Source: Nemertoderma westbladi
Taxonomy: Eukaryota > Animalia > Xenacoelomorpha
Length of the DNA: 64,000 nucleotides
Assembly: GCA_032718475.1 (NCBI GenBank)
Contig: JAUCBJ010002853.1
Coordinates: forward strand, 1 to 64,000
Reading direction: 5' to 3'
The translations under genes were made by a program, and so were the position numbers. The number at the start of each line of letters is the position of its first letter. The stretch's first letter is position 1. Of this stretch, positions 15,571 to 32,234 are shown one piece after another. The notes beneath the pieces are model-generated. The model made no database searches. It was given only the letters and a program-made list of their open reading frames with translations, and was not told the DNA's origin.

Positions 15571-17358
15571 TCATATACCACAGACTTTAACCGCTACTCC
15601 ACCGTTACTGAATAAGTTGGAACGGTGATTATAATTAACCCCTTCTTCCTTACCCTGTTTTAAGTCTTTTTTTTTACCCCTACCCTTTTGTAGATTTACA
15701 GTCTGGGTAGTGAGTTTACTTGACCCATCTTTGACAGAGTATCCCTTACTCTTGACATTTTTATCGTTGTAAACCAACTTATCACGAACAACAGGAACTC
15801 TAAAGACCACCTCAAATTTGTGTCCTATTTGCTTGATGTTTTTGTCTCTATCTTCCCCATATTCAACAAGAACAACAATCTTTCTAATCAGTCCATCTAA
15901 CCACTCTTTTTGGTTTTCAGTCGACGTTGAAACTTTGGTTTTTAAGTCATCCCCATATCTCTCTAACCAATCCAACCAGATTTTCTCTTCACTCAAATCT
16001 TCAATTTCAAGTTCAGTCTTTTTGAGTTCCTTCTTCAAGGTATCAAGTTCAACAGTAAGGTTCTTAATAATACCTTCTGTAATCTTCTTCTCTCTACGTC
16101 CTTGAACTAAATCTGTTTCCATCGAAATGATGTTTTCGTATGTCTGTTCTTGTCTACGAATAAGTTTTTTACACTTCTCCTCAAGTTTGGTTTCCCTCTC
16201 CTTGATATCTGCATCTTTATCAAATTTCTTACTCAGAACATCGTGCTTAAACTTCTCTTTCAAGATGACAGAATTGGAAACTACGTCTCTAATTCTCTCT
16301 ATTAGATAATCGTCTGCATTATCCATATTCATGGATTTTCGATTAGAACAATTGGTTTCTCTTACTTTCTTCCAATTTCTCTCTCTGGTTACACAAAAGT
16401 AGGACTTGGTATCAAAACTTGAACCGTCTTTTCTTGTACCAACCTTTACCCTTGAACCAATTTTCTCACCACACTCACAGACCATATACTCTCCAAAAAC
16501 GGTGGTGTGCTTCTTATTGTTGTCTTGGGTTTTACGTCTTTTATCCATCTCATTACGAACCTTAGTAAAGGTTGAACGAGATACGATTGAGGGGATGGTG
16601 TATGTAAAGGTTACATCTAGTTCCTTATCGTAGAATTCCTTTTCCCCAATGTAAGACCTGTTCCTTAGAATACTCTCCAGAGTACCTAAGTTCCAGTTCT
16701 TGTCTGATGTGCGTCTTGGGTGAATTCCGTCAGTCTTTCCATCTGTATCCAATGCTTTCTTGATGTCCATTGTGGACTTTCCCTCAAGGACTGAATTGAA
16801 GATAAACAGAACCCATTTACTCTCCAGTTCATCAACAGATAGGACACCATCAATTGACTTATATCCAAACAATACAGTTCCACCGTAATGACGGTTAGAA
16901 ACCCCTTGTCTTAACAAGTACCTCTTACCCTGTTTGGATTTATGACTTCGTTTCTCATTTTCGTATTGTTGCAACTTAGAAACGATATCGTATGTAAGTT
17001 TCTCTTCAAGACTATCAAAATTACAAAGGTTTCCACTTTCACCTTCGTAAAATCGTACATCGTATTTTTCTAAGTAATGCCGTCTGAATAGAACACTATC
17101 GGTTTCATCTCTGAATAAACGACTTCTATCAAACACCCACAGATGTTTGACCAAACCCTTTTCAATATCTTCCTTGATTTCCTCAAGTCGAGGACGAAAT
17201 CCTATTGTCGAACTTTTCGCACCTTCATCCCTTGCACGGAACTTGAGGTTGAGTTTCTTCGCAATCTTCTCTCCATACTCCTGCTGAGTATCCAGAGATT
17301 GACCCTTTGTCTGTTCCTGTGTCGAAACACGAAAATAACAATCAAGAAATTCAGTCAT
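15571..17358 (-). CDS. Large serine recombinase (integrase) of element B, integrated-state form
   Basis: YFRVSTQEQ catalytic Ser motif, DRSRLFR, recombinase domain, CECG..YFC..C zinc ribbon, coiled coil; ORF runs across the att junction. Confidence 0.93.
   Translation of the reverse strand: MTEFLDCYFRVSTQEQTKGQSLDTQQEYGEKIAKKLNLKFRARDEGAKSSTIGFRPRLEEIKEDIEKGLVKHLWVFDRSRLFRDETDSVLFRRHYLEKYDVRFYEGESGNLCNFDSLEEKLTYDIVSKLQQYENEKRSHKSKQGKRYLLRQGVSNRHYGGTVLFGYKSIDGVLSVDELESKWVLFIFNSVLEGKSTMDIKKALDTDGKTDGIHPRRTSDKNWNLGTLESILRNRSYIGEKEFYDKELDVTFTYTIPSIVSRSTFTKVRNEMDKRRKTQDNNKKHTTVFGEYMVCECGEKIGSRVKVGTRKDGSSFDTKSYFCVTRERNWKKVRETNCSNRKSMNMDNADDYLIERIRDVVSNSVILKEKFKHDVLSKKFDKDADIKERETKLEEKCKKLIRRQEQTYENIISMETDLVQGRREKKITEGIIKNLTVELDTLKKELKKTELEIEDLSEEKIWLDWLERYGDDLKTKVSTSTENQKEWLDGLIRKIVVLVEYGEDRDKNIKQIGHKFEVVFRVPVVRDKLVYNDKNVKSKGYSVKDGSSKLTTQTVNLQKGRGKKKDLKQGKEEGVNYNHRSNLFSNGGVAVKVCGI
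15594..15632 (-). other. att junction (element B arm + original glmS 3' end)
   Basis: Minus strand ATAATCACCGTTCCAACTTA-T-TCAGTA-AC-GGTGGAGTAG; the last 18 nt encode SVTVE*. Confidence 0.88.
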
Positions 17359-17362
17359 AAAT

Positions 17363-17423
17363 TAATCACCGTTTATTATACTTTCATTATAATCATTTTG
17401 ATGCATTAGTCAAACGGTGATTA
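17363..17423. promoter_or_regulatory. Inverted repeat TAATCACCGTTT...AAACGGTGATTA upstream of integrase B (copy of att arm; putative autoregulatory operator)
   Basis: Matches the TAATCACCGTT core of the element B att arms. Confidence 0.7.
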
Positions 17424-17528
17424 TTTGTTCTTAAAACAATTTAAGTCGTTGATTTTGCTTAGTTTTTATATTGACATTTTGCCATTTTTTTGGTAATATT
17501 CAATAAGATAAAGAAAGAGGTAATTATT

Positions 17529-18119
17529 ATGAAAGTTGCCATCTACGCAAGAATTTCAACAGACAATCTGGGACAAGATGTAGACCGTCAGTTACACGAG
17601 GTTCGTGCCTTTTGTGAAAGGATGGAATACGAGGTAGTTGATGAATATGTTGATGAAGGATTTGCAAGAACTACGAGAAACAGACCATCACTTGATAAAT
17701 TAATCAAAGATGCGAGACAAAGAAAATTCAAGATGGTGGTTAGTGACGAGTTGAGTAGATTTGCTGGAACACCTGCTCTGCTCCTCAATCTTCTTGAAGA
17801 ACTGAAACTCTGGAATGTGAATCTGGTGTCAGTAAAAGAAGGTATAGACACTTCAACACCTATGGGTGAAATGGTTGCAACGATGTTGTCTGCCATATCA
17901 AAAATGGAACTTTTCAATATCAGTCACCGTGTCAAATCTGGGATTTCAAATGCCAGACGTAAAGGTGACGGAAGTTGGGGAAAGAAATCAAACCTTACCA
18001 ATGAAGTGAAGGAACAAATCCTACAGAAACGAAATGAAGGATGGGGTTTTAGAAAACTAACCAAAGAGTTCAAGGTTTCTAACCAAACACTACGTAAGTT
18101 TTTACCAGAGTTTGCGTAG
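17529..18119 (+). CDS. Small serine recombinase (resolvase/invertase) of element B
   Basis: MKVAIYARIST, DELSRF, SVKEGIDTSTPMGE, C-terminal HTH; AGAGG RBS before ATG 17529. Confidence 0.9.
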   Translation: MKVAIYARISTDNLGQDVDRQLHEVRAFCERMEYEVVDEYVDEGFARTTRNRPSLDKLIKDARQRKFKMVVSDELSRFAGTPALLLNLLEELKLWNVNLVSVKEGIDTSTPMGEMVATMLSAISKMELFNISHRVKSGISNARRKGDGSWGKKSNLTNEVKEQILQKRNEGWGFRKLTKEFKVSNQTLRKFLPEFA

Positions 18120-18183
18120 GGTATCCGCCGATTGCGTATGATTTATCGCACTGTGCCGTAAGTCATATGAAAATCAACAATAT

Positions 18184-18191
18184 TATAAATA
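18184..18191 (+). promoter_or_regulatory. T4-type late promoter consensus TATAAATA (putative)
   Basis: Exact TATAAATA upstream of ORF 18305; a chance match is possible in AT-rich DNA. Confidence 0.35.
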
Positions 18192-18304
18192 TATGAATGA
18201 TAAGGATGAAAAGAATAGGAAACCTTGTTCGTCTTAATCTGTTTTCTAACGATAAGAAAAGGGGATGGAATAACTCCTTATCCATCCCCTTCAAGGAATA
18301 ACTT

Positions 18305-18754
18305 ATGAACATAAACCAAGAACATTCCCAACAAGTATTTATACAGATGAAGGATATTATTCTTTCGTCATGGACTACTGGTGACCCCATCGCAACCTAT
18401 GAAGAACTTGCTAATGAACTCACCCAGAACGGTATCACGAACTACTACGGACAACCCTACACCCACTGGACACTACGTAAGATGATACAACGCATGGATA
18501 AGGTTGATGAGGATTTAGACTTCAGACAAGAACACTATCCAATGATGCTGTATCTCAAGGACAGTAACATTGGACTAAAGACACCAACTCGTCCTGCCAA
18601 ACCTATTAAATCAAGAACTGCAAAGACAGTTGATGTGGATGAGGAACTGGATACCAGAGAGTTACAGGGACTCCATGACAGACATCAGTTCGCATTACCT
18701 AAATGGATGAGGGATAAAATTAAATTTCATCCAAGTGTCCAAAGTGTCCCATAA
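18305..18754 (+). CDS. Hypothetical protein with recombinase-domain-like HTH; homologue of 31396-31755
   Basis: ELANELTQNGITNYYGQPYT..TLRKMI...DLDFRQEH aligns with EIAEALQRIGVRNTVGNPYT..NLRQLV...DDDFRQDH. Confidence 0.65.
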   Translation: MNINQEHSQQVFIQMKDIILSSWTTGDPIATYEELANELTQNGITNYYGQPYTHWTLRKMIQRMDKVDEDLDFRQEHYPMMLYLKDSNIGLKTPTRPAKPIKSRTAKTVDVDEELDTRELQGLHDRHQFALPKWMRDKIKFHPSVQSVP

Positions 18755-18870
18755 ACCTTATAAGTACCTATGTAGAGGTTCAGATAAAGATAAGTCTAAC
18801 TTCTATTCATCCTAAAATAATCAATCATTTGAACCTTGCATCGTAGATGCAATCGTCCGTAGGACGAGAG

Positions 18871-21372
18871 TTAATCAGTAATTGAAGTTTCTGGTTCAAC
18901 ACCTTCACCCCAAACTTTGCTAATCCTATCTTGGATTTTTTGAGTGTAGTTGCTTGCTAATTGTTTGTTGCCGTCTATCAAAGTTCTTTCAGACGCAATT
19001 CTATTGATTATTGATTTCTGAATATCTGTGGTCGGAAGTGGTATTTTCACACCCTTAATGTCTGGATTATTAATAAGTGCCACACCTGCCGACTTTGATA
19101 TTGTTGTTAAATCGAAACCAGACATAAAATTAAACAGGTAGTCTGGTAACAGACGGTCGTTCGTAACTGTCAATGCCATACAATTATTGTCAATGACACA
19201 AGGGATTTTTGTAATTCTTTTCTTGTTTGTTGCTATTGCCGCACCCCTTTTGGGGAAGATGACAGACCCTTGTGGTAAAACATGTTTTTCATTGAATCGT
19301 GATGTGCTTACACAATTATTAGATGTAACAATCTCAACTTGGTTTTTTTCAAGGTTCATATCTGAAACCTTAATACCTGCTAAATCACCGTGCTCATCAA
19401 ATTCTGTTAGAGTGTTGCCATTATTTACACTGACCAACTCACCCAACTCAACCATTTCCCATGAGGGGTCAATGTCGATGGTAGGTTTGTAATTCTCAAC
19501 AACCTGTCTGCACCCATCAATAATGTTCTGATAACCCTCTAACTCATCAACAATCTGTTGTTGAACTTCGATGGGTGGGAGAGGAAAAGAGAAATCACTT
19601 AGGGTAGAAAAGGACAGGTTTGAGATATTCGTTGTGGTCTTTGAATTGTTGATAAAAAACTGCTTTGCTGCTTCACCATTTAGGACTGCATTTAGATACT
19701 TTGGATGAACAAACTCTTGTTTTGCCCTTATGACACCCATAAACGCACCAAAACATGTTTCAGAAGGTGCTGACCCAACAAAGGTGGTTCGTCCTACCAG
19801 TGACAAACTGTTTGCTAATGAAATAAGAATGTCATTGTCGATGAGAAATTTATCGAAGTTCTTGACCAGATTCTTTTCTATCAAGTAACAGTGTTCTTGA
19901 ACAATTCCATTCGATTGTGCTGCTTTTGTCGTAACAACGTTACAAGATGTATCAGTTTTCTCTTGAAGTTGGTCTCTTTTTGAAAAAGTGACACCCCGCA
20001 CAAACTCAGAGACTGATGATAATTTGACGGTCTCGAAATTGGATTTACTTTCAATCTGCTCAAGATAAAGGGATGATGAAAACGAGTTCTCTTTATGATT
20101 ACTTAAAGTCTCTTTTGATACGGTTTGAATGTCGGTTTCGATTCCTCTCAGAAACCTAGTTATGTCATCCTTTATTCTGGGGAGGTCATCTTTTGAGATT
20201 GCTGTCCTCTGTGCACCAAGACTGAACCCATCATTTTCAACTTTTGCAAAGAAAATACTGTCTGACTTTTGATTGAGTTCTTTATCCAAAACAAGAATTG
20301 AAGTTTTTACACCAGAATAAGGTTGAAAAACCCCTGCTGGAAGAGAAACAACCCCCACCAAACAATCCTCAACTAGTTTCTTTCTGAGAGTCTTATATGC
20401 AGTGCCTGTTTGGAAAATGATGCCCTCTGGAACAACGATGCCTGCACGACCAGTGGGTTTGAGATGTTCCATGATGTAATCAACGAACAGAACCTCTGCC
20501 CTTGTTGATTGCACCCCAAATCGTGAATGAGGTTGTATTCCACCTGTTGGAGAGAAAAACGGTGGATTCGCAAGAATGACATCATAGTATTCGTTCCACC
20601 TATCCTCAGATGACAGGGTGTCATATTCATGGATTTGAGGACTCGCAAATTGGTGTAGATACATATTCACCAGTGAGATTCGTGTCATATCTGGTGAAAT
20701 GTCATACCCAACGAGATTGTCACCAACTTGTTTACGGTCTGATGCATTGAGTTTGTCACCCAACTTCTTAACAGTGTTCTGAGACAGAATGTGCTTATAG
20801 GATGAAATCAAGAAACCTGCTGTGCCACATGCTGGGTCAAGGATGGTTTCATTCATTTGTGGGTTAACTATCTCAACAATGAAGTCGATGATGTGACGAG
20901 GAGTTCTAAACTGCCCTGCATCACCTTGTGCCCCCATGAATGACAGAAGATACTCAAACGCATCGCCTAATTTTTCTGAATGTGAATAGTGGAACTCGTT
21001 AATTTCCTTCAAAAACATATTGAGAGTTGAAGGGTCTTTGAATGGAAGAAATGAGTTTTTGAAAATCTCTCTAAACAGGGATGGTGCAGTGGGATTATTA
21101 TACATCCCCTCAATCGCATCACTATAAAGTTGCACCTTATCTGCACCCCCTAATTTTGTATCAAAGAGGTTCTTCCAAGAGTATTTTTCATAGTCACCAA
21201 CAAAGAAGGATGCGACACCACCCATCTCGACTGCTTCTTCGTCCATGTCATACATGAACTTGTAAATTAGTCCTGTAGTGATTTGCTCAACTTGACTCTG
21301 TGGACTTGGAATTTTGCCAACAAGAATATTTCTTAAATCATCTATGCGTTTCTTGGTGACACTATCTAACAT
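18871..21372 (-). CDS. Type I restriction-modification methyltransferase fused to specificity subunit (HsdM-HsdS)
   Basis: GQFRTPRHI, DPACGTAGF and ANPPF (N6 MTase), followed by two TRDs with PLPPIEVQQQIV and IPLPTTDIQKSII conserved repeats. Confidence 0.9.
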   Translation of the reverse strand: MLDSVTKKRIDDLRNILVGKIPSPQSQVEQITTGLIYKFMYDMDEEAVEMGGVASFFVGDYEKYSWKNLFDTKLGGADKVQLYSDAIEGMYNNPTAPSLFREIFKNSFLPFKDPSTLNMFLKEINEFHYSHSEKLGDAFEYLLSFMGAQGDAGQFRTPRHIIDFIVEIVNPQMNETILDPACGTAGFLISSYKHILSQNTVKKLGDKLNASDRKQVGDNLVGYDISPDMTRISLVNMYLHQFASPQIHEYDTLSSEDRWNEYYDVILANPPFFSPTGGIQPHSRFGVQSTRAEVLFVDYIMEHLKPTGRAGIVVPEGIIFQTGTAYKTLRKKLVEDCLVGVVSLPAGVFQPYSGVKTSILVLDKELNQKSDSIFFAKVENDGFSLGAQRTAISKDDLPRIKDDITRFLRGIETDIQTVSKETLSNHKENSFSSSLYLEQIESKSNFETVKLSSVSEFVRGVTFSKRDQLQEKTDTSCNVVTTKAAQSNGIVQEHCYLIEKNLVKNFDKFLIDNDILISLANSLSLVGRTTFVGSAPSETCFGAFMGVIRAKQEFVHPKYLNAVLNGEAAKQFFINNSKTTTNISNLSFSTLSDFSFPLPPIEVQQQIVDELEGYQNIIDGCRQVVENYKPTIDIDPSWEMVELGELVSVNNGNTLTEFDEHGDLAGIKVSDMNLEKNQVEIVTSNNCVSTSRFNEKHVLPQGSVIFPKRGAAIATNKKRITKIPCVIDNNCMALTVTNDRLLPDYLFNFMSGFDLTTISKSAGVALINNPDIKGVKIPLPTTDIQKSIINRIASERTLIDGNKQLASNYTQKIQDRISKVWGEGVEPETSITD

Positions 21373-23830
21373 TCTCTAATCTCTCCAAGTTCACATTGTC
21401 TTTTACATATAAGGGAATGCTCTGTTTTAACTCTTTTGGAAGTTTTCTGAACGCATCACCAGATGGATGAACACCTAATTCTGCGTATCGTTTGCTATCC
21501 ACGATATCTCTAAAATCATCATCGACTGCATATGCCTCAAATACTTCTCTTGCACTTCCATAGATTGCGTCATTTGGTTTGAGTACTTTGTCGAGTTTAT
21601 CAAACTCTTCATCCAGACACTCTCTTTGGGAAGGAATGTGTTCAATATGTCCAAAGATATGGAGAAGAAGTTCTGAAACGGTTAACTTTCTATCAAGACC
21701 CAACGATTTTCTGATTTTTTCAATTGTATAAAACTCTTGTGGTTTATCTAAAACATTGTCGTTCAGATAAGTCTCTGCTTCATCAAAATTCTGTTGAGAA
21801 ACTAAACCTTTAATGATTTCGTCCTCTGACACCTTCTTCTTGAAAGACCTGTAAAGATTTCTATCAATCTTCATACCTTGGTCAGAGAGGAGTATTTCCT
21901 TCAACTCTGCCAGAGGGTCTGGTGCAGTGCTGACCACCTCATCAATGTCTGGAGGGTTTATTGGAGGGTTTATTGGTGGTTCAGAAGGTTTTGAAGGAAG
22001 TTTTAGAACCTTATCGTAATCAAAATCTTTCTCAAAATATTCATAGTTTCCAAAGAAATCAAACAGAAGAAACTGTTCCTTTTGAGGTTCGACATGGTCT
22101 GGGATTTCTGATTTTGTAATCCATGATTGTGAGAAATCACATTTGCGAGTTCCACGACCTTTCATCTGAATAAATTCACTTGGTGAGTAGATAGGACGCA
22201 TCATGCAAATATTCAGAATATCCGTGCAGTCGTAACCAGTTGTCATCATTCCCACTGTCACACAAATACGTGTCTTCGATGTTCTGTAATGAAGGTTAGT
22301 TTTAGACTGTCCATTTAGAGAATTATTTCTGAAATCAATTGTCATTCGTTGCGAGTCTTGAACACTTGAAGTCACTTGGACTGCAAAGTCAGAACTGTAT
22401 TGTTTTGGATAAATTCTGTCTGCAAGTACATTTAGTATTTGAGTGACTTTTGCTGCGTGACTTTGCGAAACACAGAACACCAATGTTTTCCCCATCTCAC
22501 CTGTGTAAGGGTCTTGCATTGCGTGTTTTAGAAAAGTCTCACAAAAAATAGTATTGGTATTTTCTGAAAAGAACTTCTTTTCAAAATCCTTTTGAGTAAA
22601 TGTCTCCTCAAAGTCATTTCCTTCATCATCAACACCTTGAAATATATACCCCTGTTCAGAAAGAAGTTCGGTAGTGATTTCAGTTCGTGCATCAATGACT
22701 TTAGGATTAATGAGATAACCGTCCTTAACTCCATCTTCTAAGGAATATCGGAATGTTGGTTCCCCACTATCACACCCAAAGGTGGTGTAGGTGTCCAACA
22801 TCATTCGTTTCTCTAACTGTCTTGGGTCACTGCCTGCAATATTCTCAACATCTACTGATTTGAGATAGTCTTTAGGAGTTGCAGTGAGTCCTAACTTAAA
22901 TCCAATAAAATATTCAAAAACCTTTCGACTTCTTGCACCCAAAGAACGATGTGCTTCGTCCGAGATAACTAAGTCAAAGTGGTCTGGACGAAATACCTTT
23001 CGGTATTTGTTTCGACTGATAAATGACTGAACAGTAGATATGACAATCTCTGCCTTCGTCCAATCTGATTGATTTTCTTTCCAGACAACTGTCCTAAAGT
23101 CATTTTTGAGGACTTCATCGAACTCTTTCTGTGCCTGAGATTCCAATTCAAGACGGTCTACAAGAAAGAGAACTCTCTTTACTTTGTATAGACGGAGAAA
23201 CATTTTAATGATTGCTGATGAGGTAAGAGTTTTTCCTGTTCCTGTCGCCATCTCCAACAAGAACCTATCTTTGCCTTCTGCAATGCCACTTTGAACTGCT
23301 TTTACTGCCTTCAACTGGTAATCACGAAGAAGACGGAGTTTATTGTTTCTTAAAAACTCGTCTCTTTTTCTGTCATCAAGATAATCTGGATTTTGCTCAA
23401 ATTTAGGAAGTTGAGTTTGTGCAATATAGTCAACGTCAATTTCTTCGACTTCTTGTCGAGGTGGATTGAAGTTAATCTTTCTCAGTTCCAACTGTTCTTG
23501 TGATGGGAAAGTATCAACAATAGTCGGACTGCCTTGTTCAATATCCCAAAAATAATGAGAGACACCATTTGAAAGGATAACAAAACGACAATTCAGAGAT
23601 TCTGCATAACCTCGTGCTTGTTCCTTTCCTACCAATGGAGAAACCAGTTCTTTCTTTGCTTCAATGATGCATAAAGGGAAGTCAGAACTATCTTTAAGAA
23701 CGTAATCTGCAAAACCTGCCTGGTTCTGCATTTCCGTATCAACATTTACAACACCATCATCACCAGAGAGAACCCAGTCAGATTCTCTTAGTAATTTATC
23801 TATAATGATTCTTGCGTTTGCTTCTGACAT
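21362..23830 (-). CDS. hsdR: Type I restriction enzyme R subunit
   Basis: ADYVL..IEAK..QARGYA nuclease motif, MATGTGKT, DEAH, LTATP, TGYD, QMKGRGTR. Confidence 0.92.
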   Translation of the reverse strand: MSEANARIIIDKLLRESDWVLSGDDGVVNVDTEMQNQAGFADYVLKDSSDFPLCIIEAKKELVSPLVGKEQARGYAESLNCRFVILSNGVSHYFWDIEQGSPTIVDTFPSQEQLELRKINFNPPRQEVEEIDVDYIAQTQLPKFEQNPDYLDDRKRDEFLRNNKLRLLRDYQLKAVKAVQSGIAEGKDRFLLEMATGTGKTLTSSAIIKMFLRLYKVKRVLFLVDRLELESQAQKEFDEVLKNDFRTVVWKENQSDWTKAEIVISTVQSFISRNKYRKVFRPDHFDLVISDEAHRSLGARSRKVFEYFIGFKLGLTATPKDYLKSVDVENIAGSDPRQLEKRMMLDTYTTFGCDSGEPTFRYSLEDGVKDGYLINPKVIDARTEITTELLSEQGYIFQGVDDEGNDFEETFTQKDFEKKFFSENTNTIFCETFLKHAMQDPYTGEMGKTLVFCVSQSHAAKVTQILNVLADRIYPKQYSSDFAVQVTSSVQDSQRMTIDFRNNSLNGQSKTNLHYRTSKTRICVTVGMMTTGYDCTDILNICMMRPIYSPSEFIQMKGRGTRKCDFSQSWITKSEIPDHVEPQKEQFLLFDFFGNYEYFEKDFDYDKVLKLPSKPSEPPINPPINPPDIDEVVSTAPDPLAELKEILLSDQGMKIDRNLYRSFKKKVSEDEIIKGLVSQQNFDEAETYLNDNVLDKPQEFYTIEKIRKSLGLDRKLTVSELLLHIFGHIEHIPSQRECLDEEFDKLDKVLKPNDAIYGSAREVFEAYAVDDDFRDIVDSKRYAELGVHPSGDAFRKLPKELKQSIPLYVKDNVNLERLENVR

Positions 23831-23946: not shown

Positions 23947-23972
23947 CTTCTGAATTAAGTAAGGAAATACAT

Positions 23973-24373: not shown

Positions 24374-24401
24374 GTTTTACCCACTAAAACTTCCAAAATA
24401 G

Positions 24402-25030: not shown

Positions 25031-26755
25031 TGAGTCCGCCCCTGAATTCATTTGTTTTTTTTTAGGTTTCCCGACTGACGCAGAAATGTCCAGTACCCCA
25101 CTCTTCTTTTTATTTCGTCCTGTTTTGATTTCATAACCAGAGGACTTCTCTGAGGTGTCTTTGTATTCCAACTTGTCACCGACAATCTTCATTTTGAACT
25201 GGACGGTGATGTTGTGACCATACTGGATTTGTTTACCATCCCTATCCTCTTCAAACTCAGGTGAGACAATAACCTTAGTAATCAAACCCTCTAACCATTC
25301 TCTGGTCTTCTTAGGCGTTGAAGTTTTCCTATTAATGAAATCACCGTACTGACTTAACCAATCCAACCATTGTTTTCTCTCGTCCAAATCTTCAATCTCT
25401 TGGACAAACCTTTGATATTCTCTTTCATAGTGTTCTTTCTCGTCCTCTAACCCTTTTAGGATGAGGTCTACAACCTTTGGGTCTTTTCTCCCCTGTATCC
25501 TTTCAATCTCAATCTTTGCGATGTTCTGGACTGTATTCTCCAAAGATTTGTGATTTCTGCGAACCTTGTCCTCTAATGATTTCTTCTGAATTTTTATCTC
25601 TTCATCGTCTGCAATTTTCGTTGCCAGGACTTCTGACTTAAATTGTTCTTTGAGTGATACGGAATCCTTAACAACTGACTTCACAAGTTTAACCACCGCC
25701 TTGTCGGTGAGACTTCTCTCACAAGACTTTTGATTGTTGCAATCATCGAGGTCTTCACCTCTCCACTTGCGAGACTTACTCACACAAAAATAAGTTTCGG
25801 TGGTCTTACCCGATGGTCTCTTCTTGGATGTGGAACTCATCCTCAAACCACAACAGCACTCCAACAATCCATCCAATAGACCGAAATGTTTCTTGTTATT
25901 GTCTGAGATACGTTGGTTCTGTTGCAGTCTCTTCTTAACCTTGCGGTAAAGCGATACTGAGATGATTTGTGGGATTTGATAAACGTATTCTTTTTCACTG
26001 TCCTTATCGAACCACCGTTTCAATCCAGTGTAGGATTCATTACCCAGCATTTTTTGGATTGTTCCAACGTTCCATAAACCAGTTCTGGTTCGTCTGGGTG
26101 GAATTCCGTTGGAGTCGAGTTGGTTCTTTATTTCGATAGTCTGCATTCCATCTGCATACTCACGAAACATCCATTTAACCCACTTAGACTCTTCCTTATC
26201 AATCACCCATCTTTTGTTTTCATTCCTGTATCCAAAGGTCGGAGTACCACCAAGAAATATTGGAACATCATCAGAGTGATTTTCCAATAGGTGTCTCTTT
26301 CCTCTAATACTGCGCCGTCTGATTTTTCTACTCTCGTTCTCATCCATGATTTGTTGGAATGCATAGAGGAGATTCACTTCCTCTTTCTTTCCAAACTTCC
26401 ATGGTTCAGAACTATCACCGACCCACATCTGGCAACCGTATTTCTCCAAATACAGTGATTCAAATGTGATGTGTTCAAGTCTGGTACGGAATAGTCTACT
26501 GGTTTCTACAATCCAGATATTTCGGACTTCTCCATCCTCAATGCCAGATTTGATTTCATCTAATTCATCTCTGACATTTTGACCCTTGGTGTTTTTAAGG
26601 GTTGAACTCTTTGCACCCTCATCGTGTGATCTAAGGATAAGTCCTAAACGCTCTGCGAGTTGTTCAGAAATCTTTCGCTGAGACTCCAATGAATGACCTT
26701 CGGTCTTCTGTCCTCTTGTGGAAACTCGATAATATGCGTCTAGGTACTTGTTCAT
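24980..26755 (-). CDS. Large serine recombinase (integrase) of element A, integrated-state form
   Basis: MNKYLDAYYRVST, ETSRLFR, CCCG..YFC..C zinc ribbon; clearly paralogous to 15571-17358. ATG 26755 chosen by alignment with integrase B. Confidence 0.93.
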   Translation of the reverse strand: MNKYLDAYYRVSTRGQKTEGHSLESQRKISEQLAERLGLILRSHDEGAKSSTLKNTKGQNVRDELDEIKSGIEDGEVRNIWIVETSRLFRTRLEHITFESLYLEKYGCQMWVGDSSEPWKFGKKEEVNLLYAFQQIMDENESRKIRRRSIRGKRHLLENHSDDVPIFLGGTPTFGYRNENKRWVIDKEESKWVKWMFREYADGMQTIEIKNQLDSNGIPPRRTRTGLWNVGTIQKMLGNESYTGLKRWFDKDSEKEYVYQIPQIISVSLYRKVKKRLQQNQRISDNNKKHFGLLDGLLECCCGLRMSSTSKKRPSGKTTETYFCVSKSRKWRGEDLDDCNNQKSCERSLTDKAVVKLVKSVVKDSVSLKEQFKSEVLATKIADDEEIKIQKKSLEDKVRRNHKSLENTVQNIAKIEIERIQGRKDPKVVDLILKGLEDEKEHYEREYQRFVQEIEDLDERKQWLDWLSQYGDFINRKTSTPKKTREWLEGLITKVIVSPEFEEDRDGKQIQYGHNITVQFKMKIVGDKLEYKDTSEKSSGYEIKTGRNKKKSGVLDISASVGKPKKKQMNSGADSNCPIRSNQLLSSKSER

Positions 26756-26759
26756 AATT

Positions 26760-26817
26760 TGTCCAATCAATGCATTCAAAGTAACCTATTTTTATCAAAG
26801 AGTAAAATGATTGGACA
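26760..26817. promoter_or_regulatory. Inverted repeat TGTCCAATCA...TGATTGGACA upstream of integrase A (copy of att arm; putative autoregulatory operator)
   Basis: Matches the TGTCCAATC core of the element A att arms. Confidence 0.7.
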
Positions 26818-26893
26818 TTATGATATTTCCTGAGGTGTCTCTATTGCATTTGTAGACTGCAAAATATTTTGAGAATAAAGGGGGGTGGGGCAA

Positions 26894-27283
26894 TTACTTC
26901 TTCACACCACCTTCATTCAGAGTAGATGCAATAAGTTCTAGTTGCACAGTGTTGAGGATGTTGATTGCATCTCTTGCCTTCTCATCGTTGTAACCAAAGT
27001 ATCTCTTAACAACTGATAGATATTTGACGGTCACTGCATCCCTCTTCTTCTTGGATTGTGCAACGTACTTCACGTTTTTAGGTAGGGAATGGAGTAAGAA
27101 CTTATAGTGTAATTCCTTATCCATAACCCTCTGATTTGCAGCATTCAAAATTCCCATTGCAGATGCATCGTCACTGAATAATCCTCTTTGAATTAGGTAA
27201 GGAGAATATGAACTTGGTTTCTCATCGTTCCAGATGTCCTTACCTGTGTTCTTAATCGTTGCGATGTATCTGCTGTAGGTCAT
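26894..27283 (-). CDS. T4-like phage clamp-loader small subunit (gp62-like)
   Basis: YSPYLIQRGL...N......LHYKFLLHSL.K...VKRYFGYNDEKARDAINIL...QLELI...LNEGG follows the gp62 pattern (Y.P..IN.., QY.FL.N.., VK.YYGYS.EKA..AL.IL..GG). Confidence 0.75.
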   Translation of the reverse strand: MTYSRYIATIKNTGKDIWNDEKPSSYSPYLIQRGLFSDDASAMGILNAANQRVMDKELHYKFLLHSLPKNVKYVAQSKKKRDAVTVKYLSVVKRYFGYNDEKARDAINILNTVQLELIASTLNEGGVKK

Positions 27284-27285
27284 TC

Positions 27286-27624
27286 TTATGCTACCTCCTT
27301 CTCAAAATACTCTGGATAAACTTGGTAGAGTTTCTTTGCTTCTCCAAACAAACCATTCAATGACTCAGTTAGAGTGTTACTCAGTTTGTCTTTTGAGTTG
27401 TCCCAACATTCATAACTATTAGTTCCGTTTTCCAAAGTTTTTGAGTAGTCGCAGACTTTATCCAAAACCTCGTTGATTTGTTTGTTAGTCAAACCCGAAT
27501 CCTTCATCGCTGTGAGGATGATATTGAACACCTGTTTGTGATGGTGATCTGCAACAAGTGTTTCCCAAGAAAATCCAAAAATGTCTTGGACGTTCAGTTC
27601 TTTTTTAGTCGTTTTGTTTGTCAT
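27286..27624 (-). CDS. Hypothetical protein
   Basis: 112-aa ORF with AAAGGAG RBS, directly upstream of the gp62-like gene. Confidence 0.65.
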   Translation of the reverse strand: MTNKTTKKELNVQDIFGFSWETLVADHHHKQVFNIILTAMKDSGLTNKQINEVLDKVCDYSKTLENGTNSYECWDNSKDKLSNTLTESLNGLFGEAKKLYQVYPEYFEKEVA

Positions 27625-27744
27625 TTTAGTTCTCCTTTATGACGTTTTTTAATCCAGAAAACAGAACCATTTCTCTTTTCTCATTACTTTTATATACTAC
27701 CCGAAATACCCCAGAAAGTCAATAAATATCAGACACTTAGTGCG

Positions 27745-27800
27745 ACCAATAGACGGTGGTATATACATCATTAGACGCAACCAATAGACGGTGCTATAAT
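27745..27800 (+). promoter_or_regulatory. 14-bp direct repeat ACCAATAGACGGTG x2 followed by TATAAT
   Basis: Copies at 27745-27758 and 27780-27793; -10 box at 27795-27800; ATG at 27807. Confidence 0.6.
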
Positions 27801-27806
27801 GGTGTT

Positions 27807-28397
27807 ATGAAAACTAGTAGATGGAACAGATACGATAAAAAGAGTGGGTTATGGATTCCATCGTCCAAACCCATCTACACATTCTGGTTCAAGTATCTCC
27901 AACACGCAGAGAAGGACACCACCAGAACGGTTGATTGGACAAAATATGATGGATGGGGTGGTGCAGACACAATCCTAAACACCAAGTTTGATGCTTGGTG
28001 GAAAACACATTGGAAAGACTTGTTTGGTTATGAACTGGATAAGACAGAACCAAAGTACCCTCTATCAACCATCAAACCTCAACTGGACGGTATCAAGTAC
28101 TCTCTACTGGTATATGAACTTAGGAAAGAGAACCCCTCCTTAGGGTATTGGGAACTCGCAAAAGAGATTGCCGCCAAAGAATATCCAAGACGCAGAGATA
28201 AAGGGAAACGTGACACTAACTTCAAACCCGAACAATGGAGTTTCAATATCGCCCGCCCTGCCGTGGGAAGAGAACTTTGGAGAAAAGACAAAAGAGAGTT
28301 TGGAGAACAGAAACGAGTGTTGAGTTCTCGCATGGGTAGATATCAAAAAAGTGCAGAGAAACACTTGGACAACGTGTGTCGGGGTGTATTTCCGTGA
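27807..28397 (+). CDS. Hypothetical basic, Trp-rich protein (possible DNA-binding regulator)
   Basis: 196-aa ORF, YTFWFKYLQ...FDAWWKTHWKDLF; ATG 6 nt after TATAAT. Confidence 0.7.
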   Translation: MKTSRWNRYDKKSGLWIPSSKPIYTFWFKYLQHAEKDTTRTVDWTKYDGWGGADTILNTKFDAWWKTHWKDLFGYELDKTEPKYPLSTIKPQLDGIKYSLLVYELRKENPSLGYWELAKEIAAKEYPRRRDKGKRDTNFKPEQWSFNIARPAVGRELWRKDKREFGEQKRVLSSRMGRYQKSAEKHLDNVCRGVFP

Positions 28398-28570
28398 GGG
28401 TTAGAACCAAAGACTGTTATGTCTGTAATGACGCAAAGGAAGTCCTGTATCGGTGCCGATACCATGAGTTGAAGGATTGGGTGTTTCTCTGTGGAAAGTG
28501 TCTGACGGACGTTAAATCACGATTTGAGGACACCTATCAATATGGTGGAACCTGGAAGAGTAAGAAGTGA
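28394..28570 (+). CDS. Small zinc-finger-like protein
   Basis: GTGA overlap with upstream stop; CYVC...LYRCR...W.FLCGKC...YQYGGTWK. Confidence 0.6.
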   Translation: MRVRTKDCYVCNDAKEVLYRCRYHELKDWVFLCGKCLTDVKSRFEDTYQYGGTWKSKK

Positions 28571-28639
28571 GTTTTTGAATAATAATGATAAAATGTAGAA
28601 TTGAAGATTTTTGCGATGTGAGCGGGCAGGAGTAAGAAA

Positions 28640-28837
28640 ATGGAAAACCGTTTAATGAGAGCATTAGAGAGTGTACTTTTTATTGCAATATTTTTGGGTA
28701 TCTATTGGGTTATAGGTTTTTTCTGTAAATCAACATTTGATTTCGAGATACGTAGCAACAGAGGTTATACAATCGTTGTATTTGCGGCAATTGCGTTCAA
28801 AATAGTTTTGACTAAGATGTTGTTGGGAGAATTTTGA
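28640..28837 (+). CDS. Small membrane protein
   Basis: AGGAG RBS; two hydrophobic segments. Confidence 0.5.
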   Translation: MENRLMRALESVLFIAIFLGIYWVIGFFCKSTFDFEIRSNRGYTIVVFAAIAFKIVLTKMLLGEF

Positions 28838-29166
28838 TGGATTTTGCAAAGAAATTTCTATTGGGGGATTATTCCTTAACCAAAACCTTTTGGATTATTT
28901 ACTTCATTCCAACCATTTCATACACAATAATCCGTACATTATTAGTAGAGTTCGATGAAACTTACAGTAGTCCTTGGATCATCGTCATCTTATTTATGGT
29001 GTTCAAAATTGTATGTTATGTTGCGATTTGGAATAGTTCAGCAAAATATACTGGTAAGAAAAGATGGTTTTATTTGGTAAGAGTTTATCTAGCATTTGAG
29101 GTTGTGGCATTTTTTGTACGGTTAATAAATCTCATACCTCTTTTACTTGTCGTACTATCTAAATAA
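28837..29166 (+). CDS. Membrane protein (about 3 TM)
   Basis: GDYSLTKTFWI...AIWNSSAKYTGKKRW, hydrophobic helices. Confidence 0.6.
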   Translation: MDFAKKFLLGDYSLTKTFWIIYFIPTISYTIIRTLLVEFDETYSSPWIIVILFMVFKIVCYVAIWNSSAKYTGKKRWFYLVRVYLAFEVVAFFVRLINLIPLLLVVLSK

Positions 29167-29277
29167 TATAGTTCTGTATTCTGCAAAGCAACGACTGCGA
29201 GTTTACACTGGTAACATTGTCAGTGTGAAAAAAAGTAATTAAGAGTGCGTCCTTTGGATGGTCTTTGCGAATCATCC

Positions 29278-29394
29278 TGTCTCAAAAGACTGTACCCTGT
29301 GAGGACATTTCTATGAGACACTATTACTGTCTCAATAGGGTTTGTTATTGACTTATGAGGCACTTTCCTGTAAGGTCTAGAAGTAAATGAGACA
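29278..29394. promoter_or_regulatory. res site (resolvase binding subsites)
   Basis: TGTCTCA at 29278 and 29328; TGAGACA at 29314 and 29388; TGAGGCA at 29356; directly upstream of a resolvase gene. Confidence 0.75.
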
Positions 29395-29409
29395 GTACAG
29401 GAGAAAATA

Positions 29410-29952
29410 TTGAAATACGGATATGCAAGAGTTTCTACTACCGACCAAGACCTCACAATCCAGATAGACGCACTCAAATCTGTGGGATGTGAAACCATTC
29501 GACAGGAGAAGGTGTCTGGAACATCTATCCAAGATCGAGATGAACTAAACACTCTTTTAGAATTTATGCGTGAAGGTGATGAACTCGTTGTCACAAGGGT
29601 GGATCGTCTCGCACGTTCTATTCGTGACCTGCAAAACATCGTCTATGACCTCAACAAAAAGGGTGTAACGATATCTGCAACAGAACAACCTATTGATACC
29701 AAAACAAGTGCTGGGAAGTGTTTCCTAGATATGTTGGGTGTCTTTGGTGAGTTTGAGACAAACCTTCGCAAAGAACGTCAGATGGAAGGTATCGCAAAGG
29801 CAAAAGAGAAAGGTGTCTATAAGGGAAGAAAACCCTCTGTGGACGTTCAGAAGGTCAAGGAACTGCGTGATAGTGGAATGGGTGCATCTGCAATCGCAAA
29901 GGAACTGGGGATAGGTCGTGCATCTGTCTATCGTGCATTGGAGTGTCATTGA
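29410..29952 (+). CDS. Serine resolvase (Tn3/Pin-like) of element A
   Basis: KYGYARVST.DQ, EKVSG, VTRVDRLARS, YKGRKP, HTH ASAIAKELGIGRASVYR. Confidence 0.93.
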   Translation: MKYGYARVSTTDQDLTIQIDALKSVGCETIRQEKVSGTSIQDRDELNTLLEFMREGDELVVTRVDRLARSIRDLQNIVYDLNKKGVTISATEQPIDTKTSAGKCFLDMLGVFGEFETNLRKERQMEGIAKAKEKGVYKGRKPSVDVQKVKELRDSGMGASAIAKELGIGRASVYRALECH

Positions 29953-30125
29953 TATATCAAACACTAGAAGAAGCGATAATCGCCGCAGAATGCATGATAG
30001 AATCTTTTGATGATGATTATTACGACCTCATCAAGAACCCCACCAGAGATTGGGTCAAGATTACCGCAGTAGAAGGTTGGGGTTTTGAACTCTTTGGTCA
30101 TGGCGATGTGGTCAAAATAATTTGA
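29943..30125 (+). CDS. Small acidic hypothetical protein
   Basis: 60-aa ORF overlapping resolvase end. Confidence 0.4.
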   Translation: MSLIYQTLEEAIIAAECMIESFDDDYYDLIKNPTRDWVKITAVEGWGFELFGHGDVVKII

Positions 30126-30202
30126 CTTGTCGATGCATAACAGTATCGGAAGAAGTCAGCACACCATTTTCTTAAACCTTTTTTTAGATTTTCCGCAGAC
30201 AT

Positions 30203-30240
30203 AAAAAAACGCACTTAGAGGGAGTTCTAAGTGCGTTTTT
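30203..30240. terminator. Bidirectional intrinsic terminator
   Basis: AAAAAACGCACTTAGA-GGGAGT-TCTAAGTGCGTTTTT between convergent genes. Confidence 0.75.
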
Positions 30241-30267
30241 GCATAACGAGTTAAGGAATTCACTCTG

Positions 30268-30498
30268 TCAAACTGGGCGTCCTGATGTTCTGCGGATGAA
30301 ATCCTTGTATTCATCGGGATAATCACCGCCCCTCTTACGCACTTCTGCATACGCATCAGTCATGTTAGGGATTTGGGAGTGGGTCGTGGTGGTTCGTTTA
30401 TCAAGTGTTGCGTACTCTCTCGCACGAATCTCTTGTTCTTTTCGTTGTTGTTCTCTGTCCAATTTATCTTGGTAAAGAACGGCATCTGTTATTTTCAT
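30268..30498 (-). CDS. Hypothetical protein
   Basis: 76-aa ORF, ATGA-coupled to upstream ORF. Confidence 0.6.
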   Translation of the reverse strand: MKITDAVLYQDKLDREQQRKEQEIRAREYATLDKRTTTTHSQIPNMTDAYAEVRKRGGDYPDEYKDFIRRTSGRPV

Positions 30499-30698
30499 CG
30501 CATCCCTCTCAAATTTCTATCCATCTGAGCGTTCTGTTCTGCGAGCAGTAATGTCTGTTGAGAACTTTCACTAAACATCTTCACCAGCACCTTTCGTGCA
30601 GATACTTCATCCTTTGCACGAATGTATTCGTTTCCAAGTGTTGCAACCTTCTTTCCAGATGCATCTATGCGTTGTTTGAGTTGGTTTATGTCGGACAT
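30495..30698 (-). CDS. Small coiled-coil hypothetical protein, homologue of 23973-24173
   Basis: High visible identity to the element B copy. Confidence 0.75.
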   Translation of the reverse strand: MSDINQLKQRIDASGKKVATLGNEYIRAKDEVSARKVLVKMFSESSQQTLLLAEQNAQMDRNLRGMR

Positions 30699-30699
30699 A

Positions 30700-30885
30700 T
30701 CAGACACCAACTGGATAGAATTTTGGTTCTAAACCGTGTTTTTGCATATCATCGAGAAGGCATCTTTGAACTGAGGTGCGGATATAATCACTCTCATTCA
30801 CCCGAAATGTGTCACAAATTTCTTGCAAGGATTCCTTTACTGGTTCTGAAAACCGCACACTTCTTTGATATTCAAACTTCTTCAT
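30700..30885 (-). CDS. Ribbon-helix-helix-like small regulator
   Basis: YQRSVRFS...KESL..IC....NESDYIR pattern; AAAGGAG RBS; CATAAATA at 30924-30931 upstream. Confidence 0.55.
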   Translation of the reverse strand: MKKFEYQRSVRFSEPVKESLQEICDTFRVNESDYIRTSVQRCLLDDMQKHGLEPKFYPVGV

Positions 30886-31046
30886 AAAAATAACTCCTTT
30901 GGTTTGTGTTCCGTTGATGCATCTATTTATGCGTCAGAACATCCGCACATTAGGGTTTCAAAGGAGTTCCATGGGTGTTGAGAAGGGTTAGAGGTATCAT
31001 CCTACTGCGGCAGCATAAAACCTCTTGGTCGTCTCTGGTCGCAGTT

Positions 31047-31086
31047 AAAAAAATAGGCGTAGAGCAGTCGGACTCTACACCTATTT
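31047..31086 (-). terminator. Intrinsic terminator
   Basis: Hairpin AAATAGG.GTAGAG...CTCTAC.CCTATTT with T-run on the minus strand. Confidence 0.65.
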
Positions 31087-31121
31087 CATCATTATTTAGT
31101 TACTCATGGAGAAAAGAGTTA

Positions 31122-31394
31122 TCACCAGAACCAATCCCTTAGTTCTTCATCACTTGGTTCAATTGAAGAATTTGATGCATCTAAGTATTCTTGAAAATCC
31201 AGATCATTTCTAAACTTTTGAAGGTATCTATCAAACTCACGTTGTGGTGATAAATCACCACAAGTTTCACCAGTTCTATTGATGTGTTTTATTGCAGTAG
31301 TGAATCCATCAATGAAGTTACTAATTTCTAAATCAGCAATCCAAATATCTGATTCATCATATCTGAACCCCTGCATAGCAGATTTATAATCCAT
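31122..31394 (-). CDS. Acidic hypothetical protein
   Basis: 90-aa ORF starting 1 nt after the upstream stop. Confidence 0.55.
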   Translation of the reverse strand: MDYKSAMQGFRYDESDIWIADLEISNFIDGFTTAIKHINRTGETCGDLSPQREFDRYLQKFRNDLDFQEYLDASNSSIEPSDEELRDWFW

Positions 31395-31395
31395 G

Positions 31396-31755
31396 TTAGA
31401 CTTGCATTAGGGTTGGGTTGAAAAAATTATGATATTTCTCAACATCAACAGAACTAATAAATGGTTCATCAGGACTTCTTGCAGTCACTTCCTCTTCGTC
31501 ATGTATCACCCTTCTGGACTGTGGTAGATAGATGTCGATGTGATCCTGTCGAAAATCATCATCTTCCGATAATTGATTCCACTTATGAACCAACTGTCTC
31601 AGGTTGTTTGGTGTGTATGGATTTCCAACTGTATTGCGAACTCCAATGCGTTGGAGTGCCTCTGCAATCTCGTTGATGGTTGTGCATCCAAAGAAAAGGA
31701 CGCATTTGCACATATCGTGAAATACGTCTTGATTGTGTTTTTTGTTCTTATTCAT
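31396..31755 (-). CDS. Hypothetical protein with recombinase-domain-like HTH; homologue of 18305-18754
   Basis: AGGGAG RBS before ATG 31755; shared motif with the element B gene. Confidence 0.65.
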   Translation of the reverse strand: MNKNKKHNQDVFHDMCKCVLFFGCTTINEIAEALQRIGVRNTVGNPYTPNNLRQLVHKWNQLSEDDDFRQDHIDIYLPQSRRVIHDEEEVTARSPDEPFISSVDVEKYHNFFNPTLMQV

Positions 31756-31867
31756 ATTAAATACTCCCTTTATGAATTCGGGAATATTTAGACATCCTGT
31801 AACCCCGATGAGGTTCAACAGGGGTATCGAATTAAAAGAAAGTCAGTTCTGATTAAGTGACCATTGG

Positions 31868-32226
31868 TCATTTAGTGAATTCGATCCACATCTGTCCACG
31901 TTGCAATGGATACTTCTTGTTTCTTAGTTTGATTCTCTCTTCTCTTTCTCTGTACCGCTTCAAAACACTGTAAACGTATTGAGTACCCCACTGACTTCCA
32001 CCGTGGGTCGTTATCTTCCTGTCATTTAGGAAATAGGCAATCCGCCTGTATCCAATACCTCTCTGATGAAGAGAATTTATCAGTCGATATATTTGGAATT
32101 GGTTTTCTGAATATCTGGTTGGGTTCTGTTCTGGTTGAAGATAATTGAACCTTTTGGACACCTCAAAAAAGAGGAAATTTGAGTACTCATTCGCCCTCGT
32201 AATTGTCCAATCCGAACTATTCCACG
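31868..32226 (-). CDS. Detached C-terminal segment of integrase A (recombinase/HTH DNA-binding domain)
   Basis: Open frame from the att core: WNSSDWTITRANEYSNFLFFEVSKRF...GIGYRRIAYFLNDRKITTHGGSQWGTQYVYSVLKRY; in frame with integrase A after circularisation. Confidence 0.8.
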
Positions 32227-32234
32227 GTCACTGA
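32201..32234 (-). other. att junction at glmS 3' end (glmS + element A arm)
   Basis: Minus strand TCAGTG-AC-CGTGGAATAG-TTCGGATTGGACAATT. Confidence 0.9.

Follow-up and report, generated by a model that had tools for sequence, protein, structure and literature searches.

In the 64-kb window, i.e. the whole stretch of DNA that was analysed, the 3' end of glmS, a bacterial target gene, is occupied by two tandem mobile elements, A and B (Table 1). The final codons and the stop of glmS are supplied by the P' arm of element A, and the original end of the gene is displaced to positions 15594-15603, within the attR junction. Removal of both elements in silico leaves the glmS end intact. No tmRNA or tRNA was found in the window, glmS being the target of the elements.

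Table 1. Features of elements A and B and of their glmS target, in window coordinates
Feature	Position	Strand	Remarks
Element A	25004..32227		7,224 nt; junction "goes back 7224" in runs X3, X8, X13; circular relative L047
Element B	15605..25003		9,399 nt; based on arms and core
Host glmS, target gene	32217..34052	-	GATase and SIS Pfam domains; rebuilt attB yields an intact glmS end
attL junction	32201..32228	-	AC core 32227-32228 and P' arm of A; inverted repeat with 25009-25030
Shared junction	24976..25030	-	P arm of A 25005-25030, AC core 25003-25004, P' arm of B 24976-25002
attR junction	15594..15632	-	P arm of B 15606-15632, AC core 15604-15605
Large serine integrase A, short (integrated) form	24980..26755	-	591 aa from ATG; reads through its own P arm and core
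Large serine integrase B, short (integrated) form	15571..17358	-	595 aa
Distal domain of A	31868..32227	-	Frame of 119 aa, recombinase-type HTH; continues the frame of integrase A through attP; under purifying selection
Distal domain of B	24637..25002	-	Frame of 121 aa; in frame with integrase B across attP
A9 run, integrase A	25055..25063	-	Three Lys codons; likely slippage site
A9 run, integrase B	15667..15675	-	Three Lys codons; likely slippage site
T4-type clamp-loader small subunit homologue	26894..27283	-	phrog_225, E 1e-19; immediately upstream of integrase A
Small serine resolvase/invertase with HTH_7, cargo of A	29410..29952	+	Pfam
Small serine resolvase, cargo of B	17490..18119	+	Divergent from integrase B; Pfam
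Type I restriction-modification, cargo of B	18871..23830	-	HsdR-like 21362-23830; fused HsdM-HsdS 18871-21372; Pfam

The attP arms are inverted repeats about the AC core, all three cores being read on the minus strand. At zero shift, 18/19 outer positions pair in B and 17/19 in A, and pairing reaches at most 7/19 at any shift of 1-4 nt, so that attP is symmetrical only about AC. The first-pass annotation of this DNA had placed the crossover at AC, and both the arm symmetry and the exact 7,224-nt junction length of element A agree with this position. The resulting 2-bp core within an inverted-repeat attP of ~ 50 bp is the configuration expected of serine integrases.

Both integrases match PF00239 (N-terminal resolvase catalytic domain) followed by PF07508 (Recombinase), each above cut-off. 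PF13408 gave no Pfam match in the window proteins; a zinc ribbon with an inserted coiled coil is indicated by Cys pairs conserved in the alignment and by a long helical pair (residues 366-460) in the predicted model, where a linker at 561-596 is disordered. The fold matches the SPbeta, phiC31, Bxb1 and LI integrases (Foldseek E 1e-20 to SPbeta integrase). All of the canonical domains (catalytic, recombinase, zinc ribbon and coiled coil) are retained in the short form.

Joining the ends of each element at AC yields an open frame, as had been claimed: 706 aa instead of 595 in B and 703 aa instead of 591 in A, with the junction peptides quoted in the annotation. The frames cross the core differently, AC occupying codon positions 2-3 in B and 3-1 in A. 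In-silico circularisation, proposed as a check, places each attP inside its own integrase gene and recovers the long frames of A and B. Integration cuts off a conserved C-terminal HTH module, which is encoded only by the joined-end form. The idea that the recombination state rewrites the enzyme is in this respect confirmed, with a short form in the integrated element and a longer frame on joined ends.

Natural counterparts of the long forms were found in independent assemblies. One is a 703-aa protein, 99% identical to long A, encoded by a circularly assembled 10-kb contig; in a contig junction, a circle and a head-to-tail repeat look alike. Public reads were searched for the predicted attP junction, and the exact 7,224-nt junction of element A is present in 3/8 sequencing runs examined (X3, X8 and X13), belonging to three studies; the joined-end form occurs in seawater virus-fraction DNA. 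The run that may be the source of the window did not show this junction. A single-protein query found no relatives of integrase B in IMG/VR, and only 5-8% of words were present in RNA runs. Databases also contain chimeric long forms, in which an integrase is fused to the distal domain of another element, and a strict division of long and short forms by recombination state is too simple.

The added segment had been described as a second recombinase-type HTH. This is supported by PF07508 matches in both distal frames (28.1 and 21.2 bits, cut-off 21.1), and the two domains are 38% identical over 96 aa. A sequence search disclosed no solved structure resembling the distal domain, and distal A had no match among GenBank phages. 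Fold comparison returned HTH matches at Z 5-7 only, including the SPbeta and Bxb1 recombinase domains, as well as equally weak resemblance to a small terminase and numerous regulators. When residues 290-560 of integrase A were modelled together with distal A, the predicted complex scored 0.73 (best control 0.00), on a scale whose mark is reached by 51/78 solved pairs and 2/108 mismatched pairs, and which split-gene halves may pass through likeness to solved folds. Contacts common to runs amount to at least 52%, with a partner pLDDT of at least 72, and the interface takes in residues 343-361, adjoining the coiled coil. The second DNA-binding domain, at the coiled-coil base, is thus the predicted docking place of the distal module. 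A free C-terminal fragment, suggested earlier, finds no support in the window: no ATG, GTG or TTG precedes the conserved first strand in either distal frame, and the first available starts would remove part or all of the predicted docking strand.

Judged by its codon changes, the distal domain is under purifying selection. Distal A differs from its counterpart in L046 by six synonymous changes and one replacement, and dS/dN in three other pairs is 0.49/0.10, 1.09/0.21 and 0.88/0.13. The close pair L020/L024, with 0 synonymous and three replacement changes, is a counter-example, and stops are present in some chromosomal distal frames (L001, L089 and L094).

We have also addressed the frame relationship in 22 related elements with matching arms, a tally that omits L029 (arms 7/20), L026+L102 (non-matching arms) and seven tandem non-matching junctions. 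The distal domain is in frame in 12 elements and in the -1 frame behind a slippery site in nine; the single exception has a 29-nt duplication. This link (21/22) holds for either core orientation and in three codon phases, and it recurs in several lineages on the integrase tree. In a wider set, 47 of 51 distinct distal frames sit 37-84 nt behind a core. None of the 47 has a stop between the core and the distal frame, with ~ 0.39 expected for each according to shuffling of 21 forward-core cases; 21/47 are without a canonical start, and ATG is available in only four. Because the frame links are accompanied by natural long proteins and by the circle junction in public runs, we agree with the first-pass annotation in favouring selection over chance, and the comparison supports the view that access from the integrase frame to the distal domain is maintained by selection.

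Each of the 18 integrases that end ahead of the core has a slippery heptamer close by (background 0.21 per equal window), and A-runs of at least eight near the core occur in 30/47 integrases (background 0.009). A conserved slippery heptamer or A9 run combined with an overlapping -1 frame is characteristic of programmed -1 frameshifting or transcriptional slippage, and an A9 run is found in both window genes. These A9 runs would probably also yield the short product from the circle. The earlier scheme of a long form on the circle and a short one after integration is accordingly right about the long joined-end form and too simple in leaving out such short products.

Two further arrangements were observed among relatives. 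In a third layout, inversion of the integrase gene joins the distal domain; no circle-type attP with matching arms was found in flipping layouts, and at the invertible Terasakiella locus no far end with a matching arm was detected within ~ 60 kb. Relatives also form arrays of small integrase-less cassettes at one site, each with its own recombination arms. Among such cassettes with matching arms, the distal domain is open in 4/6, and two cassettes of 426 nt are without it. A start of its own on the cassette circle is a mixed feature, with an ATG on the P side in 2/4 matching-arm cassettes. In the window elements, small ORFs of A or B gave no match to an RDF family in Pfam or PHROGs, but RDFs have neither sequence nor fold in common (PMC12286644). 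No ParB, Mom or RecF-like module genes were present among the scanned element ORFs, and promoter and terminator signals in 24400-27300 were at or below chance.

The first-pass annotation knew of no equivalent among large serine recombinases, and here it has to be corrected. In Dehalococcoides, dsiB overlaps attL at its 3' end, and the authors suggest that the gene may be whole only on the circle or where a neighbouring island follows it (McMurdie et al. 2011, PMC3146451). Elements A and B resemble these ssrA islands in the overlap of the integrase 3' end with att, in tandem insertion at one essential gene and in a small serine recombinase, and differ in targeting glmS and in being without the ParB/Mom/RecF module; the available text of that account mentions neither an appended domain nor a frame test, and neither a slippery site nor an inversion, and "frameshift" has 0 matches in it. 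The archaeal SSV1, pTN3 and pT26-2 integrases likewise have attP in the integrase gene, are split on integration and form inter-element chimeras, and the accessible part of a review terms such suicidal integrases exclusively archaeal (PMC8371274). They use tyrosine chemistry and lose the catalytic domain in the split (PMC8371274), whereas the window integrases have a serine resolvase domain, keep it with all canonical domains and lose an extra one. In domain order, fold, 2-bp core and symmetric attP of ~ 55 bp, they are like phiC31, Bxb1, SPbeta SprA/SprB and LI/A118 integrases (PMC11722253, in the text available). Searches of main texts outside subscription journals yielded only the DsiB remark, and no account of a glmS-targeting serine integrase, an appended domain or a frameshift.

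Integrons are cassette arrays at one site. The arrays described here are similar in their small integrase-less cassettes with own arms at one site, and differ in using serine chemistry, in having double-stranded att arms and in that the cassettes include part of the integrase. In IS transposases and dnaX, programmed frameshifting on a slippery run lets one gene encode both a long and a short product, and in the mycobacteriophage BPs repressor and the Mx8 integrase attP cuts the gene and integration alters the C-terminus; the present case differs in that a single serine integrase is subject to slippage and recombination together. The direction of serine integrases is generally ascribed to separate RDF proteins, and to our knowledge no RDF is known for many integrases. 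Differences from RDF systems are the natural recombination-dependent fusion, the recombinase-type HTH module and the lack of an identified separate RDF. Engineered integrase-RDF fusions, in which a C-terminal flexible linker to the cofactor changes direction, are comparable to what is proposed below (PMC5737554, available text).

We propose, with about an even chance of being right, that the distal module is a built-in integration cofactor of glmS-targeting serine integrase elements and that the long form favours integration. Both long and short subunits would be made from the excised circle: window circles would give long by default and short through A9 slippage, and relatives of the -1 type short by default and long through a -1 shift. 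The module would extend the sheet in the second DNA-binding domain by one beta-strand at the coiled-coil base and give an extra DNA contact, and efficient attP x attB recombination would need tail-bearing subunits. After insertion short subunits alone would be made, locking the element in until the long form is resupplied by a free circle, an in-phase tandem neighbour or a flip of the integrase gene, as in the third layout. An integration role is favoured because excision of a single copy cannot be initiated by a module whose synthesis has to await that excision; the open domain in most matching-arm integrase-less cassettes also speaks for it. Engineered integrase-RDF fusions, moreover, are poorer at integration (PMC5737554), yet the long form is the default product of window circles. 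Against a cofactor stand the presence of all canonical domains in the short form, the short default product of the -1 type, the 426-nt cassettes without the domain, the stops in some chromosomal distal frames, the changes in L020/L024 and the lack of the junction in the possible source run. Canonical domains suffice for integration in the serine integrases studied. The predicted interface lies near the SPbeta RDF-binding region, which fits an RDF-like role equally; in the available text of PMC11722253, the SPbeta RDF binds the general region next to the coiled coil, a comparison made without superposition.

In such a role, the module would be a tethered RDF-like factor that blocks re-integration of the circle, favours excision and leaves the element free for packaging, with short slippage subunits performing integration. 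We regard this as rather unlikely, even though the predicted docking beside the coiled-coil base falls where RDFs act (PMC11722253), engineered fusions work via a flexible linker (PMC5737554) and the model linker is disordered at 561-596, the conserved slip guarantees short subunits and junctions occur in virus-fraction runs. The first excision of a single copy could not be triggered, the long form is the default in 12 in-frame elements that must integrate in a new host, and the window offers no start codon from which a free fragment could be made.

Less probable still is a module without a role in direction, i.e. a circle-specific DNA-binding arm tethering the integrase for autoregulation, replication or packaging. 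The weak fold likeness to many regulators and a small terminase, the clamp-loader-like gene adjoining integrase A and the lack of the domain in some cassettes are consistent with it, although the fold is also like integrase recombinase domains, docking is predicted on the domain controlling synapsis, and flipping layouts retain the fusion, though without a matching-arm circle-type attP found there. That the long form alone is active and the short form dead for both reactions, as in suicidal tyrosine integrases such as SSV1 and pTN3 (PMC8371274), seems improbable. Chimeric long forms in arrays would then rescue excision, as the available text suggests for DsiB (PMC3146451), but the short form keeps the catalytic serine with every canonical domain, and a conserved slip making short subunits on the circle would be wasteful. 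A chance frame link or an assembly artefact, to which the lack of the junction in the possible source run might point, has practically no likelihood and is refuted by the 21/22 links, long proteins in independent assemblies, the 7,224-nt junction in three studies and purifying selection.

On a broader level, it is possible, if doubtful, that members of a widespread glmS-targeting family determine their own direction and need no separate RDF. Whether the enzyme carries an integration-licensing HTH module would depend on the attP junction, on a slippery site and, in some lineages, on inversion of the integrase gene, and integrase-less cassettes bearing the module would complete or retune the resident integrase in an integron-like array run by a modular serine recombinase. 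Mining of integrated elements can return integrases that are incomplete, and the system may offer a natural one-shot or switchable integrase for genome engineering. The family represents a serine system aimed at the conserved glmS end in at least four phyla; the enzyme is altered by the very DNA that recombination produces, with fusion, frameshift and inversion as three routes to the same long protein.

On the minus strand, glmS is followed by element A, element B and the original, displaced glmS end. Past each of the three AC cores, the sequence encodes the terminal GlmS residues and then stops, and in-silico removal of both elements restores an intact glmS end. Each element opens with its P' arm and the distal open frame and closes with the integrase gene, which reads through its own P arm and over the core. 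Inverted-repeat pairing of the arms is centred on AC, with 18/19 and 17/19 outer positions paired at zero shift and at most 7/19 at any other. Domain and fold matches identify integrases A and B, 37% identical to each other, as large serine recombinases. As cargo, element B carries a resolvase along with a type I restriction-modification pair; element A also has a resolvase, together with small ORFs and a homologue of a clamp-loader subunit. The flanking genes are ordinary host genes (purA, hflKC, nrdA, typA, miaA, rnr).

Joining the element ends in silico at AC, i.e. reconstituting attP, reproduced the open frames proposed in the first-pass annotation: the integrase continues into its distal domain as a long form of 706 aa instead of the integrated 595 aa in element B, and of 703 aa instead of 591 aa in element A. 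As also proposed there, the two integrases cross the core in different codon phases, each in frame with its own distal ORF, and the added part is a second recombinase-type domain, matching PF07508 (Pfam). Similarity between distal A and distal B begins at residue 17, upstream of any start codon. The recombination state decides whether the integrase gene can encode this module.

Homologues of about 700 aa, anticipated from this arrangement, do occur. Querying longer proteins with distal A disclosed one of 703 aa that shares 99% identity with long A; its 90% cluster mixes long members (703-711 aa) with short ones (585-591 aa). The cluster of integrase B is composed likewise (706 aa and 586-601 aa), and in both clusters short members diverge from long ones solely past the core. 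The predicted attP junction was found for element A. Contig L047 (10,388 nt, with a 123-nt terminal repeat and without glmS) carries both ends of A joined at attP with 96-97% identity, and a joint with a step back of exactly 7,224 nt, matching A in length, is present in three of eight public runs (X3, X8 and X13, viral metagenomes from three studies). This joint was not seen in the run that may be the window's own source, nor was any joint for element B in the eight runs. A circle is the simpler reading of the joined ends than a head-to-tail repeat, two states that contigs cannot separate.

Scans with integrase-derived patterns detected 29 genome and 44 metagenome loci in Pseudomonadota, Bacteroidota, Verrucomicrobiota and Bdellovibrionota. 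Relatives of the distal domain form 886 clusters at 50% identity (E up to 1e-10), and the core, read backwards, is still present as a short motif in 29 of the best 150. Among 51 distinct distal frames in the loci, 47 sit 37-84 nt behind a glmS-type core, with no intervening stop in any (0/47). The expectation that homologues keep the distal ORF in frame with the integrase stood in 12 of 22 elements with matching arms; in nine it overlaps the end of the integrase in the -1 frame, and the sole exception, L050, has it in the +1 frame with a 29-nt tandem duplication within the overlap. Frame states are scattered over the tree of integrases and occur with the core in either orientation, in rows that are related and not all independent. 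Purifying selection on the distal domain was observed in most pairs compared, one close pair excepted. Two homologous integrases, P0033 and P0055, end in the terminal residues of GlmS, reading across the core in the frame of glmS and stopping there in both states.

A slippery heptamer (A-run or G-GGA-AAG) lies within 45 codons of the core in all 18 integrases that stop before it. A-runs of at least 8 occur near the core in 30/47 integrases, compared with 0.009 per window of equal size in other parts of these genes. Both window integrase genes carry an in-frame run of nine A (A9), 57 and 68 nt upstream of the core, a feature that is absent from the first-pass annotation and emerged in the present analysis. 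Slipping at A9 would give a protein end at 565-581 aa; the databases include variants with lengths of exactly 565 and 568 aa, which may represent slipped DNA or assembly error. In the family's Bacteroidota members (L015, L019, L020, L022, L024-L026), the integrases are ~630 aa long and seem to have an extra HTH-like stretch ahead of the slippery site.

In five loci the integrase gene is flanked by inverted repeats (263-313 nt, 97-100% alike), and these integrases have no slippery site. The outcome of flipping the gene was computable in three cases, and the long form came out in frame each time (658, 660 and 647 aa); inversion would toggle short and long forms. Both orientations of the segment were found among the loci, although assemblers may orient such segments unreliably. 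Integron-like arrays in SAR116-like genomes consist of core-bounded cassettes of 0.4-2.8 kb, many combining a distal domain with one or two membrane-protein-like cargo ORFs; the open distal frame is kept in 4/6 cassettes with matching arms and absent from two. The same integrase body is linked to different distal domains in the proteins P0044/P0071, P0089/P0082, P0006/P0094/P0095 and P0040/P0121, showing that a neighbour in the array can complete an integrase. In the window the phase difference between A and B precludes this for integrase A.

Among other features, the clamp-loader homologue adjoining integrase A and the virus-fraction runs hint at a phage satellite. The small-ORF pair common to A and B, abundant in viromes, is a candidate for regulators or an RDF. 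One further small ORF per element matched no family in Pfam, NCBIfam or PHROGs. The first 14 kb of the window, with longest open stretches of at most 145 codons, are probably decayed genes; their outermost part has what we take to be the look of RTX-type glycine/aspartate repeats. Downstream, a segment has a depth of 175-420, compared with 25 for the elements, in the run possibly representing the window's source; the segment is therefore either multi-copy or the amplified end of a prophage.

Coordinates of features in the window and in related loci
Feature	Location	Strand	Remark
AC core	32227-32228	-
AC core	25003-25004	-
AC core	15604-15605	-
Clamp-loader homologue	26894-27283	-	T4-type, small subunit
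Shared small ORF	23913-24373	+	206-nt inverted repeat, 75%, with next
Shared small ORF	30495-30885	-
Further small ORF	18305-18754	+	recombinase-type HTH look by eye
Further small ORF	31396-31818	-	recombinase-type HTH look by eye
Decayed genes (probable)	1-14000
RTX-like repeats (presumed)	first 600 nt	-
Tail gene fragment (P2-type), Dam-like methylase, then short repeats	13429-15145
High-depth segment	14500-15040
Integrase gene between inverted repeats	L009:9714-11628		repeats copy gene's own 3' end
Same	L014:1091-3025		same
Same	L017:9644-11588		same
Same	L006:9637-11640		same
Same	L021:108-2052		same
Integrase-less cassette array behind glmS	L002:11736-16182		SAR116-like
Same	L090:14517-16547		same
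Same	L092:514-6286		same

The AlphaFold2 model of P0070, a natural long form 99% identical to long A (mean pLDDT 83.6), shows a canonical integrase, a disordered linker (561-596) containing the A9-coded and attP-coded residues, and a confident domain (600-702) with a strand-helix-helix-helix-strand fold. The isolated distal domain has weak fold likeness to HTH proteins, including the recombinase domains of SPbeta (Z 6.4) and Bxb1 (Z 5.6). ESMFold2 docking of distal A with integrase residues 290-560 scored 0.73 (best control 0.00), with contact agreement of at least 52% and partner pLDDT of at least 72; the mark was passed by 51/78 solved and 2/108 mismatched pairs. The model supports binding of distal A to this region, in a test that the two parts of a split gene may also satisfy by resemblance to solved folds. 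In the predicted interface, strand 16-32 of distal A pairs with integrase strand 511-524, with contacts at 343-361, ahead of the coiled coil.

Circles would make both long and short subunits, and integrated copies short ones only. We give about an even chance to the module licensing integration. This reading is favoured on three grounds: a module that arises only once the element has been excised cannot initiate that step; the long form is the default product in the window type, yet a circle has to integrate when it reaches a new host; and fusions of an integrase to an RDF show poor integration (PMC5737554). An RDF-like factor is a less likely alternative; consistent with it, the short form by itself makes up a full canonical integrase, and the docking interface is predicted near the region bound by the SPbeta RDF (PMC11722253).

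An attP within the integrase gene, as in A and B, is established for archaeal tyrosine integrases (PMC8371274). The first-pass annotation knew of no equivalent for large serine recombinases; here it was preceded by McMurdie et al. 2011 (PMC3146451), who noted an overlap between dsiB and attL and suggested that the gene may be complete only in the circular form or when it lies in front of a neighbouring island. DsiB is a serine enzyme and, as in A and B, its gene overlaps the att site. In the main-text literature searched, passages of integrase-mining and satellite papers included, we met with no description of the appended domain, slip, inversion or glmS target. The observation is real, and elements of the A/B type are a variant of serine integrase elements.
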